Source: Bacteroidota bacterium (GTDB lineage Bacteria; Bacteroidota; Bacteroidia; Chitinophagales; Chitinophagaceae). Taken from it: DNA of 32,950 bases. The notes below the pieces were generated by a model that saw only the letters and a list, made by a program, of their open reading frames with translations, did not search any database and was not told where the DNA came from. Each line of letters begins with the position of its first letter. The stretch's first letter is position 1. The stretch is taken from positions 1-32,950 of the forward strand of contig CANGUS010000001.1 of the NCBI GenBank assembly GCA_947457085.1, read 5' to 3'. Positions 6,354-30,818 of this stretch are shown one piece after another. The position numbers and the translations under genes were made by a program.

Positions 6354-8306
6354 TTATAGCTTCTCGAGTATAATTACGATTTTATTGAAATCGGCTGCAG
6401 CATTAATTACTTTTTTATAATCTTCATATACAATTTTTGATACATAGCTATCGTTGTATGTTTCAAATACATTTACGGCTAATTTTGAATCTTTGAGGGT
6501 GTATTTTGAAACAAATTTGCAGGTTTCTTTTCCTTGATAATTTGCAACTACATTCATATTTAATTTATCCAAATTATTTACTTTGTAGCCAGCAGGAATA
6601 TCTATTTCTATATTTCTAGTATATTGATGAGGATTGGGAATTTCGATATCAAATTGTCTTTCGTTTTCTTGATACATTTCCGCTTGTCGTCCTATTAATT
6701 CACCAATTTTAAATAAATATTTGTTGCCCGCTTTTTCAATTTGATTGGTAGCATAGATTGTGGCACTTATTTTTAGCGGTTTGTCTTCCATCGTTAAATA
6801 TTTGAAATCATTATTTTCATATTTGAAATCACTTATTTTCTCCTCTTTATCACTTATTCGAATCATCTCTTTTGCAATTTCATCTCTTTTTTCATTGTCA
6901 AATAAAACAAAGCCAGGTAATATTTCTACCATATTTTGTCCTTGAAAAGTATTTTTCATTTGAATAATAGCAGTATCTAAATCGGCATTAAAAAGTACAT
7001 GTACATCATGATTGGTGTAATTTAATTTAGCATCAGTTTGTGGAATTGTTCTTTTTTCTGCACGAATAAGTTGCAAAGAATCTTTAGTAAACAAACAATT
7101 ATTTTCATGCCAAGTGGAAGGGGTGTATGGCACTCTGTAAAATGGTTCGTTAGGCGCTAGGTATTGTTTTATATCAGGAAAATAAAAAACACAAGAGGTT
7201 AAATTGTCTGGATTGATAAAGTCGGTATCCAATGATTTGACAAATCGATTGGTAGTGAAGCCAATTTGGAAATTAACTCGACTGATAGTAAAAAGTAATG
7301 AAAATAGTTTTTTTATCCCTTTCTCATTGGTTAGTTTGTTTTTTATTATAAAAGAAATTTCGTCTGCATCTTTCGATTGTACTACCTCTTGTTGCTGAAA
7401 TGAAGTTTTTATAAAATTCTCTATCCAGTTAATTTTTTCAATTATGAGTTTGCAACTTCGGAAGTCTTGATTGTCTATTAATTTGATTCCTGCTTTTATA
7501 TCCTTGTCTGAAAAATTTGTATTTTCTCTGTAAACTAAGCTAAAATAATCATCCCAATCAAATAAGCGATCCCCTCTCTTTTTTTCTTCTAAATTATTGG
7601 CTAATGAATATTCCACTCTGGCAAAATGAGAAACGTACGAAGCATATTTTTCTTCTTTTAATCCGGCTTTATTTTTTATGTACGCTAAAAAACTATTTTT
7701 ATTATTTACAACTGTATCTTTTTCTATTATGACATCATTGTATCCTTTGATGTCAAAAATTAAATTTGCATCACTGACAATCTCAAACCAATTTTCCATA
7801 ACCGGCATTTCATCCTGCAAATACTCTGTGCCAAATGGCATAAATGGCCGTCTTTCATATACAATAAATTCTATTTCAGAACCCTTTTCAACACCCTCGA
7901 GCGCAAATATTTTACTGAAGTTTCCATTCTCTTCTTTTACATCTTTAAATGCATTTGCAGCCAACTCGATTACTTTACCACTCGGTGAAATGGTTCGAGC
8001 TTTTATTAAAATAATTGGATTGGCTTCATTGTATCCAATTTTTATTTTATTAAACATTTCAATTCCTTTCTCATCATTGGTTCTGATAATTCTATGAAAT
8101 CTATGCGTGAAAACTAATTGATTTCTTAAATCTTTGCTGACTTCATATTGATTCACTTCTTTGATAATGATGGCACTTTCTTTCAAAAAAAGTTCATTTT
8201 TAATTTGGTGTATCGTTGGATTAGACTCCCAATTTATATTTAATCGTTGTGCATTGATTCCCACTGAAAGCAGATATAGGAATAGGAAGAGTCCTGTTTT
8301 TTTCAT
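6354..8306 (-). CDS. exported DUF3857/DUF3858-like protein, paralog of the upstream transglutaminase-like gene but lacking the catalytic triad
   Basis: 650 aa with a signal peptide (LFLFLYLLSVGINAQ). Same size and layout as the 8310-10214 product. At the position of the GDCKD...H...D core it reads NEKGIKKLF...LTSCVFYF...APNEP. It lies 3 nt downstream of its paralog, so probably in the same operon. Confidence 0.75.
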   Translation of the reverse strand: MKKTGLFLFLYLLSVGINAQRLNINWESNPTIHQIKNELFLKESAIIIKEVNQYEVSKDLRNQLVFTHRFHRIIRTNDEKGIEMFNKIKIGYNEANPIILIKARTISPSGKVIELAANAFKDVKEENGNFSKIFALEGVEKGSEIEFIVYERRPFMPFGTEYLQDEMPVMENWFEIVSDANLIFDIKGYNDVIIEKDTVVNNKNSFLAYIKNKAGLKEEKYASYVSHFARVEYSLANNLEEKKRGDRLFDWDDYFSLVYRENTNFSDKDIKAGIKLIDNQDFRSCKLIIEKINWIENFIKTSFQQQEVVQSKDADEISFIIKNKLTNEKGIKKLFSLLFTISRVNFQIGFTTNRFVKSLDTDFINPDNLTSCVFYFPDIKQYLAPNEPFYRVPYTPSTWHENNCLFTKDSLQLIRAEKRTIPQTDAKLNYTNHDVHVLFNADLDTAIIQMKNTFQGQNMVEILPGFVLFDNEKRDEIAKEMIRISDKEEKISDFKYENNDFKYLTMEDKPLKISATIYATNQIEKAGNKYLFKIGELIGRQAEMYQENERQFDIEIPNPHQYTRNIEIDIPAGYKVNNLDKLNMNVVANYQGKETCKFVSKYTLKDSKLAVNVFETYNDSYVSKIVYEDYKKVINAAADFNKIVIILEKL

Positions 8307-11283: not shown

Positions 11284-11856
11284 ATGAAAATAGGCTTATA
11301 CTTCGGAAGTTTCAATCCAATTCATTTAGGACATTGCATCATTGCCAATCATGTATTGCATCATTGCGATGTTGAACGTATTTGGTTTGTGGTATCGCCC
11401 CAGAATCCTTTAAAAGAGAGCAGTGCGCTTTTAAATGAAAACCATCGTTTACACCTCGTGCAGTTGGCCATCGAAAACGAAACCAAGTTTAAAGCCAGCA
11501 ATATAGAATTTTCATTGCCTCGTCCGTCTTATACCATTGACACGCTTTCATATTTAGCCGATAAATATCCTCAACACGAATTTTCAATTATCATGGGAGG
11601 AGATAGTTTCCAGAATATTACGAAGTGGAAAAACTACGAGACCTTGCTTAAAAACCACAAAATTATTGTGTATAACCGACACGGTTTTACAATTGATTTG
11701 TCGCTCAGCAAAAACATTGAAGTGGTAAATGCTCCTTTGTTAGACATTTCATCGACCTATATTCGCAAACTCATTAAAGAAAAAAAATCGATTCGCTATC
11801 TTGTAAGCGATGAAGTAAGAAACGACATAAAAGCCAATGGTTTTTATAAAAAATAA
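11284..11856 (+). CDS. nadD: nicotinate-nucleotide adenylyltransferase
   Basis: 190 aa with GSFNPIHLGH (HxGH nucleotidyltransferase motif) and the C-terminal ISSTYIR motif. Confidence 0.9.
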   Translation: MKIGLYFGSFNPIHLGHCIIANHVLHHCDVERIWFVVSPQNPLKESSALLNENHRLHLVQLAIENETKFKASNIEFSLPRPSYTIDTLSYLADKYPQHEFSIIMGGDSFQNITKWKNYETLLKNHKIIVYNRHGFTIDLSLSKNIEVVNAPLLDISSTYIRKLIKEKKSIRYLVSDEVRNDIKANGFYKK

Positions 11857-11910
11857 ACACTGAATTTGATGAATTTCAGATCTAGGTTTTGAAAATCAAT
11901 AACGATTTTA

Positions 11911-12162
11911 AGTTGTGCAAGCAATGAAATAAGCCGTGCAAGCTATGCAACAGGCTGTGCAGACAATGAAAAGGACTTTGCAAACTATTTAATAGGCAGT
12001 GCAGGAAGTGAAAATGCCTATGCAGAAAGTACAAATGGCTGTGTAAGGTTTTTAAATAGCCATGCAGATTGCATTATTTGCTATGCAGAAAGATGTAGTT
12101 ACGGTGTAGCACTTGAAAATCATCATGCAGAAGATGGAAATCCTCATGCAAGGTTTGATTGG
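11911..12162. repeat. 12 x 21-bp strictly phased degenerate tandem repeat with invariant TG(C/T)A core
   Basis: The T of the core falls at 11916, 11937, 11958, 11979, 12000, 12021, 12042, 12063, 12084, 12105, 12126 and 12147, each exactly +21. There is no indel in any unit. Approximate consensus: rgcyrTGCArrannTgaaat. Confidence 0.85.
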
Positions 12163-12254
12163 GAGAGAACAAGCCGACCTGGAGGGATAGTACCAAACTA
12201 TTTTCCTTACAGAATATATGTCGCTTTCAAAACGTAAATAATGGCTTAAAGTCT

Positions 12255-12262
12255 TATATTTG
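12255..12262 (+). promoter_or_regulatory. Bacteroidota -7 promoter box (TATATTTG) for secA
   Basis: TATATTTG matches TAnnTTTG. It lies 110 nt upstream of the secA ATG, which would give a long 5' leader. Confidence 0.4.
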
Positions 12263-12372
12263 CGAACCTTTGTGCCAGCTTGTCATTAAAATGATATTAG
12301 CACACAATTTGAAATAAAAAACTAATTAAAATAACAATCGAAAACGATTCACAATATACTTAAACAAGAACT

Positions 12373-15300
12373 ATGTTAAATTTCATTAATAAATTATTTG
12401 GAGGCAGTAAGTCAGAAAAAGATGTAAAGAAGTTAGCTCCAGTTATCGACCAAATTAATCAACATTTTAATTCGTATCAATCGATTAGCAATGATGAGTT
12501 GAGGGGCAAAACGACTGATTTCAGAAACCGAATCAAGGAATATACCAAAGAGATTGCAGACAAAATTGCGGCTAAAAAAGAAGAAGCAGAAAATACTGTT
12601 GACATACATGTAAAAAATGATATTTTCAAAGAGATAGACCGTTTAATTAAAGACAAAGACAAGCAATTAGAAGAAGTTTTGTTGCAAATTTTACCTGAAG
12701 CATTTGCTACTGTAAAAGAAGCCTCTCGTCGTTTTTCAATCAATGACACATTGGTAAGTAAAGCAACCGATTTAGATCGAAACTTGGCGGTAAAAAAAGA
12801 CTATATTTCTGTTGAAGGCGATGAATGTACTTTCCAAACGACCTGGATGGCTGCAGGAGCGCCTGTTACATGGAACATGGTTCACTATGATGTGCAGTTG
12901 ATTGGAGGATATAATTTACATGAAGGAAAAATTTCTGAAATGGCAACAGGGGAAGGTAAAACCTTGGTTTCTACCTTGCCCTCATACTTAAACGGATTAG
13001 CTGGCGAAGGAGTGCATGTGGTAACGGTAAATGACTATTTGGCTCGACGAGATAGTGAGTGGAACGGAACTTTGTTTGAGTGGTTGGGCTTAACAGTAGA
13101 TTGCATCGACAAACATCAACCAAACTCAGAAGAGCGTAGAAATGCCTATTTGGCTGATATTACCTATGGTACCAACAATGAATTTGGTTTCGATTATTTA
13201 CGGGATAATATGGTGCATACCCCTGCAGAAATGGTACAACGTAAGTTGCATTTTGCCATGGTGGATGAGGTAGATAGTGTATTAATTGATGATGCACGTA
13301 CGCCCTTAATTATTTCGGGCCCGGTGCCTAAAGGCGATGATCAAGAGTTTCAAGTATTGAAACCAAGTATCGAAATTATAGTAGAAGCACAACGAAAAGT
13401 AGTAAACACCTTTTTGATTGAAGCTAAAAAATTAATTGCTGCAGGTAACGATGATAAAGAAGGCGGTGGTATGGCCTTGTTGAGAGCATACAGAGGATTG
13501 CCTAAAAACTCATCTACTATTAAGTTTTTGAGTGAAGTGGGGATTAAACAAATTTTACAAAAAACAGAAAATTACTATTTGGCTGATCAACAAAAAAACA
13601 TGCCGAAAGTAGATGCTGAATTGTATTTTACGATAGATGAAAAACAAAATCAAGTAGATTTAACAGAAAAGGGTATTCAATTGATGACGAGCACGGTGCA
13701 AGATGCTAATTTCTTTGTGATGCCAGATATTTCTACCGGTTTAGCTGCGATTGAAAATGCAACAGTTTCGACAGAAGAAAAATTAAAAATGAAAGATGCT
13801 TTCTTGCAAGAATACTCTTTGAAAGCAGATCGAATTCATACCATTCAACAATTATTGAAAGCCTACACTTTATTTGATAAAGACCAAGAATATGTGGTGA
13901 TGGATGGCAAAGTAAAAATTGTAGATGAGCAAACAGGTCGTATTTTAGATGGTCGTCGCTACAGCGATGGATTGCATCAGGCCTTGGAAGCAAAAGAAAA
14001 TGTAGATGTGGAAGCTTCTACACAAACCTTTGCTACGGTTACTTTACAGAACTTTTTTAGAATGTACCACAAGTTAGCGGGTATGACAGGAACGGCCGAA
14101 ACAGAAGCAGGAGAGTTTTGGCAAATTTATAAATTAGACGTAACAACGATTCCTACTAATCGTCCTATTACTCGTAAAGATGAAGACGATTTAGTATACA
14201 AAACCAAGCGTGAAAAATACCGAGCAGTTATTGAGGAAGTGAAAAAAATGCGTGAGCAAGGTCGTGCGGTTTTGGTGGGTACAACATCGGTTGAGGTGTC
14301 AGAATTATTGAGTAAAATGTTGACGTTTGATAAAGTACCACATAATGTATTGAATGCGAAACAACACTCTCGTGAGGCACAAGTAGTTGCTGAAGCAGGG
14401 ATGCAAGGAGCGGTAACGATAGCTACCAATATGGCTGGTCGTGGTACGGATATTAAATTAGCAGACTCGGTAAAAGCAGCAGGCGGATTGGCCATTATAG
14501 GTACAGAGCGTCATGAAAGTCGTCGGGTAGATAGACAACTTCGTGGACGTGCAGGTCGTCAGGGAGATCCAGGAAGTTCGGTGTTTTATGTTTCTTTGGA
14601 AGACGATTTAATGCGTTTATTTGGTAGTGAAAAACTATCAGGTTGGATGGATAAATTGGGTCATAAAGATGGGGATGTTATTCAACACGGTATGATTTCA
14701 AAATCCATTGAGCGTGCACAAAAGAAAGTAGAGGAAAATAACTTTGGTATACGTAAACGTTTATTAGAGTATGATGATGTAATGAACTCTCAGCGTGAAG
14801 TTATTTATTCTCGTCGTCGCAATGCCTTATTTGGAGAGCGTTTGGCGGTAGATTTAGACAATGCATTTTATGATAGTTGTAATTTAATAGCTTCTCAATT
14901 TGATACGAATAGAAACTACGAAGAATTTAAAATTGAAGTTTTAAGAGATTTTGCATTTGAGCCGAGTATTTCAGAACAAGATTTTTTAAAAATTCCTGCG
15001 CTTCAATTAACGGAAAAGTTATATCAAGAATTGCTTGATTTCTACGATCGTAAAAAAGCATTCATATGTGAAAATACGGTGCCGGTATTGAAAAATATTT
15101 ATCAGCAAAATGGCCAACGAATTGACAATATTGCTGTGCCGTTTACTGATGGTCACAGAGGGTTGCAAATAGTTGCTCCATTGAAAAAAAGTATAGACTC
15201 AGAAGGAAGAGATTTAATTCATTCATTAGAAAGACAAATTACTTTAAGTTTAATTGATGACGCATGGAAAACCCATTTACGTCAAATGGATGAGATGAAA

Positions 15301-15690
15301 CAAAGTGTGCAATTGGCTAGTTATGAGCAAAAAGATCCCTTATTGATTTATAAATTTGAGGCCTTCAATTTGTTTAAAGAAATGATTGCGATAACAAATA
15401 AACAAATCGTTTCATTCTTGATGCGCAGTGGAATACCAATGCAAGAAGAGCAAGATATTCAACAAGCAGAAGTAGCAAAAACAGATATGAGTCGCATGAT
15501 TTCTAATAAAGAAGAAATTGATGAAGCTGGGGATAGTTATGGAGCGAATAGCAGCGATTATTTTAGCAATTCAACATCCACTGCAGATGTTAAGGCAGAG
15601 CCAGTGCGTCGTTTAGAGCCTAAAATTGGTCGCAATGATTCATGTCCTTGTGGAAGCGGTAAAAAATTCAAAGCTTGTCATGGCAAATAA
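12373..15690 (+). CDS. secA: preprotein translocase ATPase SecA
   Basis: 1105 aa. Walker [15 protein letters not shown]-like [20 protein letters not shown], and the C-terminal zinc-binding tail [15 protein letters not shown]. Confidence 0.97.
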
Positions 15691-28787: not shown

Positions 28788-29381
28788 ATGTTTTACGAAT
28801 ATAAAGGGATAAAACCGATTGTACATGAAAGTGCATATGTACATCCACAAGCTGTAGTTACTGGAAATGTTATCATTGGAAAAAATGTATATATTGGTCC
28901 ATGTGCTACGATTCGAGGCGATTTCGGAAAAATTATTATAGAAGATGGTTGCAATGTTCAAGAAAATTGCAATATTCATATGTTTCCAGGAGTAACGGTT
29001 TTATTGAAAGAAAATGCACACATTGGTCATGGTGCCATCATACATGGAGCTACTATTGGTAAAAATTGTTTAGTAGGAATGAATGCTGTTATTATGGACG
29101 ATGTGATATTGGGAGATGAGTGCATTGTGGGTGCACTTAGTTTTGTCAAAGCGAAAGAAAACATCCCTGCTCGTAGTCTATTGGCAGGAAACCCTGCTAA
29201 AATAATCAAACAAGTGAGTGATGAAATGATTGGCTGGAAATCTGACGGAACAAGAATTTACCAACAGTTAGCTGTAGAATGTCATCATGTACTGAAAGCT
29301 TGTGAACCGCTTCGTGAGATGCCTAAAGACAGAAAAGAGTTAGAGACAACATATAAAACCTGGAATGATACAAAAAAATAA
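28788..29381 (+). CDS. paaY: phenylacetic acid degradation protein PaaY (hexapeptide-repeat / gamma-carbonic-anhydrase-like family)
   Basis: 197 aa, colinear by eye with E. coli PaaY: VHPQAVVTGNVIIGKNVYIGPCATIRGDFG..., HIGHGAIIHG, VGMNAVIMD, and the C-terminal EPLRE. It lies 5 nt downstream of the dehydrogenase gene. Confidence 0.85.
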   Translation: MFYEYKGIKPIVHESAYVHPQAVVTGNVIIGKNVYIGPCATIRGDFGKIIIEDGCNVQENCNIHMFPGVTVLLKENAHIGHGAIIHGATIGKNCLVGMNAVIMDDVILGDECIVGALSFVKAKENIPARSLLAGNPAKIIKQVSDEMIGWKSDGTRIYQQLAVECHHVLKACEPLREMPKDRKELETTYKTWNDTKK

Positions 29382-29392
29382 AAGAGCAGCAA

Positions 29393-30622
29393 TTATTTCA
29401 ACACTTCTAAACTCTTTGATATAATATTTACACATTCATCTAGTTCTGTTTGTGTAATTACTAATGGTGGTGCTAAACGGATTTTATCTCCATGAGTAGG
29501 TTTTGCTAATAAGCCATTTTGCATCATATTTACACATAAATCCCAAGCGGCATCTTTATTTTCATGTTTGATAACGATCGCATTTAATAGACCTTTTCCT
29601 CTTACTAAAGATATAAATGGACTATTTAAATTGCGAATTTGTGTTCTGAAATATTCACCTAATTTCTCTGCATTTTCACTCATGTTTTCATCTTTTAATA
29701 CCTGCAAAGCAGCGATGGCCACTTTACAAGCCAAAGGGTTTCCGCCATAAGTTGAGCCATGCTCTCCTGGTTTTATGTTCAACATGATTTCGTCATTACA
29801 AAGTACAGCACTAATTGGCAATACACCACCACTTAGCGCTTTTCCTAATATTAAAATGTCAGCCTTAATGTTTTCATGGTCAATAGCAAGCATTTTTCCT
29901 GTTCTAGCTAAACCAGTTTGAATTTCATCTGCAATAAAAAGTACATTAGCCGCTTTACACATTTCAAAGCAAGTTGCCAAGTAGCCTTCATCAGGAACTA
30001 CCACTCCTGCTTCACCTTGAATTGGTTCTACTAAAAATCCACAAACATTTTTATCTTTTAATGCAGTTGCTAAAGCTTGTACATTATTATATTCAATTGT
30101 TTCATAACCGGAAATGAATGGGCCAAAGCCAGTTTTTGAACTTTCATCCGTACTAAATGATATTACATTCACCGTGCGGCCATGAAAATTTTCTGAGCAA
30201 ACAATAATTTTTGCTTCATTAGCAGGAATGCCTTTTTTGTCATAACCCCATCTACGGGCTAATTTGATAGCAGTTTCAACAGCCTCAACACCAGAGTTCA
30301 TTGGCAATACTTTGTCATATCCAAAAAATTGAGTAATAAATTCAGCGTATTCACCTAGTAAATTACTATGAAAAGCTCTTGAAGTTAATGTTAAAATACT
30401 GGCTTGCTCAACTAAAGCATCAATAATTTTTGGATGGCAATGCCCTTGGTTAATTGCAGAATATCCACTTAAAAAATCGAAGTATTTTTTACCTTCAACA
30501 TCCCAAACATAAACACCTTTCCCTTTTGTAAGCATTACTGGTAAAGGGTGATAATTATGCGCATTGTATTTTTCTTCTCTCTCAATTAATTGTTGTGTTA
30601 ATGACATATTTATCGTTTGCAT
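29393..30622 (-). CDS. rocD: ornithine--oxo-acid aminotransferase
   Basis: [44 protein letters not shown] is the typical OAT N-terminal block of this class-III aminotransferase. Start set at Met8 of the track ORF (30622) because a TACCTTTG box lies 4 nt upstream. ATG 30607 is the alternative, and ATG 30643 lies upstream of the box. Confidence 0.9.
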
Positions 30623-30626
30623 GTGG

Positions 30627-30634
30627 CAAAGGTA
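30627..30634 (-). promoter_or_regulatory. Bacteroidota -7 promoter box (TACCTTTG) for rocD
   Basis: The minus strand reads TACCTTTG-ccac-ATG (ATG at 30622-30620). Confidence 0.45.
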
Positions 30635-30818
30635 TTCAATCAATTACGAATTTCAAATTACCAATTAGGAAATCAATAAATCAAATTATAATTTCCTATA
30701 ACTTTCAATTATAGTAAAGGGTATTAAGTAAGATGTTAGATTTTATATTGTGAAAAATTGAAATAGAATATTGCCGTTAATATTTCGCAATTCATAATCC
30801 ATAATTCATATTTACATA

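Follow-up and report, generated by a model that had tools for sequence, protein, structure and literature searches.

A copy-number-variable array of 21-bp repeats between nadD and secA in uncultured Chitinophagaceae, possibly an intergenic minisatellite

Short repeats between bacterial genes are known from several systems. The mycobacterial interspersed repetitive unit-variable-number tandem repeats (MIRU-VNTR) of Mycobacterium tuberculosis are head-to-tail units of tens of bp, with a length that is a multiple of 3, placed between two co-oriented housekeeping genes and polymorphic by whole units among close strains, with open reading frames (ORFs) that run through the array and may overlap the stop of the upstream gene. 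Plasmid iterons and centromere-like arrays include the 17-22-bp Rep iterons, sopC of F (12 x 43 bp) and parC, and the enterobacterial repetitive extragenic palindromes and bacterial interspersed mosaic elements (REP/BIME) are imperfect palindromes in alternating orientation, dispersed genome-wide. Here, we analyze an array of head-to-tail 21-bp units between nadD and secA of an uncultured member of the Chitinophagaceae, at positions 11911-12162 (no strand assigned) of a stretch of 32,950 nucleotides from contig CANGUS010000001.1, hereafter the window. The nadD|secA junction is common to three sister lineages, A (that of the window), B and C, from which 20 spacer haplotypes were recovered, 13 of them from lineage A. 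With confidence about evenly divided, we read the array as an intergenic, non-coding minisatellite (VNTR) that would have originated at a rearrangement junction, itself a cassette hotspot, would change size by slippage or unequal exchange and would have no sequence-specific role for secA.

A preceding sequence-only reading of the window had described 12 phase-locked units of exactly 21 bp without insertions or deletions, and recounting confirmed this. Within the unit, T6, G7 and A9 are constant in 12/12 copies and position 8 is C in 10 and T in 2, again as described. The pairwise identity between units has a mean of 51% (41% outside the core, with 27% for random sequence), and because of this low mean identity Tandem Repeats Finder gives just 2.7 copies of the array. 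As a chance control, the longest chain of TG(C/T)A motifs at 21-bp spacing was 2 in ~1.2 Mb of nadD-flanking DNA from 160 other Chitinophagaceae loci; the pattern in the array is far beyond chance. The array has a GC content of 40%, compared with 15-31% in the window's other 12 intergenic regions, and a second copy of the unit was not found elsewhere in the 33-kb window. The plus-frame residues before the core (C,R,C,F,S,Y,C,H,Y,G,H,H), the nadD and secA flanks (NadD, PF01467, and SecA ORFs) and a gap of 93 bp between the array and a putative secA -7 box (TATATTTG at 12255-12262) had also been read correctly, and the array is indeed not a clustered regularly interspaced short palindromic repeat (CRISPR) locus, since its 21-bp units are contiguous and lack spacers, whereas CRISPR combines ~24-48-bp repeats with unique spacers of similar length.

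The unit identity matrix and the haplotype unit maps divide the array into three parts. Units 1-6 (11911-12036) are the younger and more homogeneous part; they comprise an a-type (..TGCAGGAAGTGAAAAT) and a b-type (..TGCAAACTATTTAATA) and are the site of every strain-to-strain copy-number change. Units 7-10 (12037-12120) keep the TG(C/T)A core in phase and have a constant copy number in 13/13 lineage A haplotypes; unit 7 is still recognizable as b-type, and units 8-10 are diverged, with 9-14/21 positions identical to other units. Units 11-12 (12121-12162), or the last 1.5 units of the array, are chimeric, being homologous to the 5' arm and hairpin of the Flavo-1 RNA of lineage C and carrying an in-phase TGCA.

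Copy number varies freely among close strains. In the 13 haplotypes of lineage A the spacer measures 516, 537, 558 or 579 bp, corresponding to 12-15 units, and the length differences are always whole units in the left, nadD-side half of the array. The 2-8 units of lineage C follow the nadD stop directly, and this range is seen among strains whose NadD is identical. Their a-type unit, GGCTGTGCAAGAAGTGAAATA, and b-type unit, GGCTGTGCAAACT(A/T)TTTAA(T/A)A, are the same two subtypes as in lineage A and alternate as a 42-bp higher-order repeat; the best matches of the window's units to those of lineage C are 15-20/21 for units 1-5 and 13/21 for unit 6. The spacer of lineage B is 400 bp long and lacks the array, and a local alignment for an array relic in it was no better than shuffles. 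Absent in lineage B and present in 2 to 15 copies elsewhere, the array is dispensable. The sequence-only reading had denied that it was a young minisatellite and had named free copy-number and phase variation among close strains, with no binding or transcript signal, beforehand as the observation that would speak for a neutral one; whole-unit variation of 12-15 units in close strains and 2-8 in a sister lineage is what was found, and the denial is not supported. The lineages themselves are well separated (dS of window versus lineage B ~0.8-1.0; 4-fold degenerate sites 50-59% identical among the three), and at least some of their contigs stem from the same metagenome.

Tandem units in the range of ~10-100 bp, whole-unit polymorphism among close strains and dispensability, three of the usual marks of a minisatellite or VNTR, are thus present. 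The array shares with MIRU-VNTR every feature listed above, the overlap of an ORF with the upstream stop occurring here in lineage C. Unlike MIRU-VNTR, it has been found at a single locus so far, not interspersed, and in a Bacteroidota host, and it combines a unit identity of 51% with one strictly kept 4-nt core and a two-subtype 42-bp higher order. Like iteron and centromere arrays, it consists of about a dozen directly repeated units that keep helical phase and combine a conserved core with variable flanks; unlike them, it lies in a chromosomal housekeeping context with no replicon and no Rep or Par gene, its copy number is free from 2 to 15 and a sister lineage either lost it or never had it. 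Neither a cognate gene nearby nor retention of the array wherever the locus is retained, as expected of such systems, was observed. With REP/BIME it has in common an intergenic cluster of short repeats in two alternating subtypes, but its units are direct, non-palindromic apart from TGCA and confined to one locus.

The junction that holds the array is itself of restricted distribution. The nearest species representative of this uncultured organism has 72% NadD identity, and nadD|secA adjacency was absent from 160 other nadD loci of relatives (NadD identity up to 76%). In two relatives that were looked up directly (NadD identity 81-83%), nadD is immediately followed by an aminotransferase gene; in the relatives at this distance (L296, L299-L301) it lies on the minus strand and is accompanied by a plus-strand hexapeptide-repeat gene. 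The same two genes occur in the window at 28788-30643, ~17 kb downstream and in the other order, with the aminotransferase near 29.4-30.6 kb. As the aminotransferase follows nadD in relatives and lies far downstream in the window, the nadD|secA junction is a lineage-specific rearrangement breakpoint. We also considered whether the array could be a remnant of the gene that follows nadD in distant relatives (an AraC-type regulator, a TPR-like protein or an aminotransferase), and this was rejected, all of them being unrelated to the array.

A link between the array and secA had been suggested in the sequence-only reading, and it is not supported. The conserved secA promoter and 5' leader (12211-12372, plus strand, array outside) contain the perfect Bacteroidota-type -7 box 93 bp after the array. 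These 162 bp are 95% identical between lineages A and B, against ~50% for 4-fold sites, and show 0-1 differences among close strains where 5-8 are expected. As lineage B keeps the promoter and leader at 95% without having the array, secA control does not include the array. Between array and secA promoter lie 93 bp up to about 800-900 bp, because ParE-like or PDDEXK_3 cassettes and the Flavo-1 RNA intervene in lineage C. The array adjoins the nadD 3' end in both array-bearing lineages, 4-54 bp from the nadD stop; the AT-rich 54-bp leader between stop and array (11857-11910, no strand assigned, GC 26%) is particular to lineage A, and the corresponding leader in lineage C is 4 bp only. Judged by this arrangement, the array is tied to the nadD end and not to secA. 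The secA promoter with its leader of roughly 100 nt is a strongly constrained 5' region, the leader being possibly cis-regulatory; on the promoter and leader, Rfam gave a sub-threshold S15-Flavobacteria match only.

At its secA-proximal end the array runs into a decayed relative of a known RNA element. The Flavo-1 RNA motif (RF01705) was described by Weinberg et al. 2010 (PMC2864571), and transcriptome work found it in either orientation to coinciding transcribed regions and often outside them (PMC9723704). Just ahead of the secA promoter, lineage C carries a bona fide Flavo-1 RNA (50-62 bits versus a gathering score of 42), at L308 3897-3975, L302 3811-3889, L303 3801-3879 and L304 3859-3937, and in the 143 kb scanned Flavo-1 occurs at this locus only. 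Alignment to these copies revealed a Flavo-1-like element at 12121-12183 (plus strand) of the window, with 6-nt and 9-nt deletions and a broken hairpin; even at E <= 10 the Rfam Flavo-1 model did not match the window. The array is homologous at its 3' end to the lineage C copy at the same place, but the array units themselves are not Flavo-1 and the window copy is decayed below any threshold. Immediately beyond, 12184-12210 (no strand assigned) is a flank common to lineages A and C and not B. Within the chimeric part, the core region of unit 12, TGCAAGGTTT, is closer to unit 7 of the array (TGTAAGGTTT) than to Flavo-1, and the in-phase TGCA in units derived from Flavo-1 indicates short-patch conversion or selection.

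In lineage C the order is nadD, array, a PDDEXK_3 gene or ParE-like pair, Flavo-1 RNA and secA promoter, and the spacer (L302-L309, e.g., L308 3074-4160 and L303 3074-4064) is a cassette hotspot at which strains with identical NadD differ. The PDDEXK_3 cassette is flanked by 1-3 copies of a ~84-bp repeat (CTGAATCACGGATGATGAGGATTACACGGATTGCACAGATGAG...). The alternative cassette is a pair of 70 and 99 amino acids, the second member being ParE-like, below the Pfam cutoff. The cassette junctions fall at differing unit positions.

We then considered recent change within the array. In two lineage A haplotypes that were compared in detail (dS 0.03-0.05 to the window), 4 and 7 differences were counted in 216 bp of the right part of the array, against 6.5 and 11 expected at dS 0.03 and 0.05; the between-strain rate in the array is ~0.6 x dS and the deviation is not significant. 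A spanning network of all 55 distinct unit variants yielded 34 single-step changes, 23 of them transitions. Even the core changes in nature, with G7 replaced by A in three unit variants (TACA or TATA), one of which is present in five contigs.

Several observations nevertheless weigh against a purely neutral minisatellite. In neutral simulations of duplication and mutation, with uniform or AT-biased Hasegawa-Kishino-Yano substitution and matched to 50% unit identity, three constant columns within 4 nt arose in only 0.03-0.9% of cases, and the predicted GC content was 26-31%, below the 40% of the array. Positions 6, 8, 9 and 10 received just 1/34 of the recent changes and the G/C-rich positions 1-5 received 19/34 (P about 6e-5), a bias that could reflect GC-to-AT mutation bias or selection. 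The units of lineages A and C are 71-95% alike, with 18-20/21 in the best pairs, and they share the two subtypes and the AATA/AAAA and GGC/GAC variants, when 4-fold sites of nadD and secA are ~50% identical. Finally, the in-phase cores in the Flavo-1-derived units 11-12 need conversion or selection. Pure neutrality fits poorly, and what is left over may be weak sequence constraint, biased homogenization or gene flow between lineages.

These same observations are what a phased binding array would account for, with a GGCTGTGCAR site every two helical turns for a candidate DNA-binding, architectural or recombination protein that may mark the nadD-side edge of the hotspot and whose specificity would keep the units alike. 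The constant core beyond the simulations, the subtypes conserved between lineages far above 4-fold-site identity, the elevated GC, the exact 21-bp phase, the cores that arose in phase in Flavo-1-derived DNA and the variable cassettes inserted directly beside the lineage C array are consistent with it. We nevertheless consider it unlikely, if worth keeping in mind: gene tables hold no candidate binding-protein, Rep, Par or recombinase gene in the window or any related locus, the array is missing from lineage B and free in number elsewhere, G7 is mutated in natural variants, the cassette junctions respect no fixed unit position and the 33-kb window has no other copy. A more specific form, in which the units would be recognition sites on one helix face for a candidate binding or recombination protein that bounds the cassette hotspot, making a chromosomal iteron- or att-like array of a new type with subtypes kept alike by that specificity across lineages in which neutral sites are half randomized, is less likely again. 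The minus strand, which the sequence-only reading had overlooked in weighing the plus frame alone, offers a different account, a live or recently dead gene for a His/Leu-rich heptad peptide (coiled-coil or amphipathic) of variable repeat number. Its frame reads x-L-H-x-x-x-[F/L/Y] 12 times, with an a/d hydrophobic pattern; the constant Leu uses four synonymous codons (TTG, CTG, CTA, TTA), the His is CAT or CAC with one CAA (Gln), and the variable plus-strand positions 5, 8 and 10 are synonymous in it. Of all six frames, this one has the lowest pN/pS among units, 0.49 (only 0.15-0.2% of column shuffles fall below it), lineage C has no stop in this frame and each of the 13 lineage A haplotypes has a single one. 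That stop, however, is a TAA (12074-12076, minus strand) fixed in 13/13 haplotypes, lineage A has no ATG, and neither the start nor either terminus is the same across lineages and cassette types. Masking of positions 5-10 abolishes the signal (0.70, P 0.15), and 10/34 recent changes are synonymous (29%), against 31% expected. Codon usage is unlike the host's (CTG is 6/12 of the Leu codons versus 2% in the host; score -0.42 versus 0.30 +/- 0.10 for host genes). Searches with the translation, by word index and by exhaustive phmmer over 1.84 billion representatives, returned no real homologue and low-complexity repeats only, and the L-H peptide found nothing among viral loci. Because units 11-12 derive from Flavo-1, an ancient coding origin of their heptads is disfavored as well. 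Like heptad-repeat coding DNA, the array has a 21-bp period, phase-locked cores and the minus-frame pattern x-L-H-x-x-x-F, and in viral contigs five TGCA cores spaced by 21 bp turned up in ~120 stretches, only one or two of them outside ORFs of roughly >=100 codons, most of which encode repeats of 7 or 14 residues; unlike such DNA, the array is interrupted by a fixed stop and lacks a conserved start and conserved termini, its recent substitutions are neutral, its codons are not those of the host and it has no homologues. A minus-strand pseudogene, our early favorite, was downgraded since its signal depends on the 6-nt core, recent changes are neutral and its N-terminal heptads are derived from Flavo-1, and minus-strand coding now seems to us improbable.

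Enzymatic propagation could also keep units alike, if the array were part of a mobile or selfish repeat, REP/BIME-like or associated with the cassettes and possibly with Flavo-1. The abutting Flavo-1 element, which elsewhere occurs in either orientation (PMC9723704), the swappable PDDEXK_3 and ParE-like cassettes with their ~84-bp tandem repeat, and the subtypes and variants common to lineages would fit, but no second unit copy was found in the window or in the 160 other nadD loci of relatives, none in viral, phage or plasmid collections, Flavo-1 is confined to this locus in the DNA scanned and no transposase lies near the array, so that this proposal has a slender chance. A repetitive RNA element, such as a nadD 3' untranslated region, a sponge for an RNA-binding protein or a small RNA, is in our view very unlikely. 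The array follows nadD directly on the same strand, a terminator scan found no plus-strand terminator-like site and the UGCA motif is repeated, but the array can be dispensed with and has no fixed length, Rfam matched nothing in it, and folding against shuffles gave no significant structure for either strand (z of -0.46 and -0.02 for the two strands of the window array; -0.5 and -1.3 for the plus strand of lineage C arrays). The minus-strand RNA of a lineage C array (L308 3070-3245) is unusually unstructured (z +3.8), C-rich and G-poor. The structured or sponge RNA suggested in the sequence-only reading accordingly finds no support in these scores. As an observation apart, the composition of this minus-strand RNA resembles that of Rho-utilization sites, a likeness of doubtful relevance because no minus-strand gene lies upstream. 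The plus strand has been annotated in public databases, where cluster P0011-P0016, a 95-amino-acid "hypothetical protein", is the plus-frame ORF through the array (L202-L212, e.g., L203 2566-2853; ~11990-12243 in the window). In the window this frame runs for 116 codons without a stop, it scores as host-like in codon usage (+0.215) and ORFs are called in relatives; analogous calls of 88-116 amino acids overlap the nadD stop in lineage C. Yet a start codon is missing from the window, the ATG in close strains having come from an ATA-to-ATG change, 9/13 lineage A haplotypes have 1-2 stops, pN/pS among units is 1.64 and 4/34 recent changes are synonymous (12% versus 26% expected, P 0.04). The C-terminus extends into the conserved promoter DNA, with a stop that is not conserved in lineage B, the translation matched the same locus in close strains only, and a host-like score is what one would expect when NTN- and NAN-rich codons are read in antisense. 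A plus-strand protein is effectively refuted, in agreement with the earlier statement that the conservation is not at the protein level of this strand, and the 95-amino-acid cluster is very probably a spurious gene call. There is no stable gene on either strand.

The earlier failure to recognize the array as any described element was borne out. Pfam, NCBIfam and PHROGs returned nothing meaningful on both translations, tRNA and transfer-messenger RNA searches found none, and no description of this repeat was found in the literature. The DNA similarity search of phages and plasmids gave a single chance match, to a Dickeya phage, and the unit pattern gave two chance matches and no arrays in viral contigs, where the scan for five TGCA cores at 21-bp spacing proved unspecific, hitting mostly heptad-repeat ORFs. 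A replication origin (oriC) was considered for the locus and rejected, with 6 DnaA-box near-matches versus 12 expected, none of them in the spacer, and a GC skew that follows gene strand.

The left neighbor, nadD (11284-11856, plus strand), encodes a nicotinate-nucleotide adenylyltransferase of 190 amino acids, and the right neighbor, secA (12373-15690, plus strand), is an ORF of 1105 amino acids with SecA domains; window genes near the locus include those for a lipid A acyltransferase, NadD, SecA, TetR, OEP and HlyD, among others. Tandem Repeats Finder also reported a second 21-bp repeat at 6798-6840, of 2 copies that are 95% identical (ATATTTGAAATCACTTATTTTC), inside the minus-strand DUF3857 ORF at 6354-8306; its sequence is unrelated to the nadD-secA array.

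Returning to the minisatellite that we favor, the array would have arisen in the nadD/secA rearrangement junction, in an ancestor common to a few lineages of uncultured Chitinophagaceae. Gains and losses of whole 21-bp units, or of 42-bp a+b double units, take place at the more homogeneous nadD-proximal end, probably by replication slippage or unequal recombination. Such a mechanism would also account for the exact 21-bp phase, since the array changes by whole units and by point substitutions only. The secA-proximal units, which run into the decayed Flavo-1, are presumably too diverged to slip. The 5' half GGCTGTGCAR, common to both subtypes, may owe its likeness to homogenization or gene flow, and at most to a weak, non-essential constraint.

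In conclusion, the analysis removes a candidate secA regulatory element and provides a VNTR for typing strains of an uncultured Chitinophagaceae population that many metagenomes have sampled. A further lesson is that heptad-repeat genes and iteron arrays can both be mimicked by a phase-locked 21-bp array. Should the residual constraint prove real, the array would be a tractable sequence-specific repeat tied to a cassette hotspot in Bacteroidota, of which, to our knowledge, few have been described.

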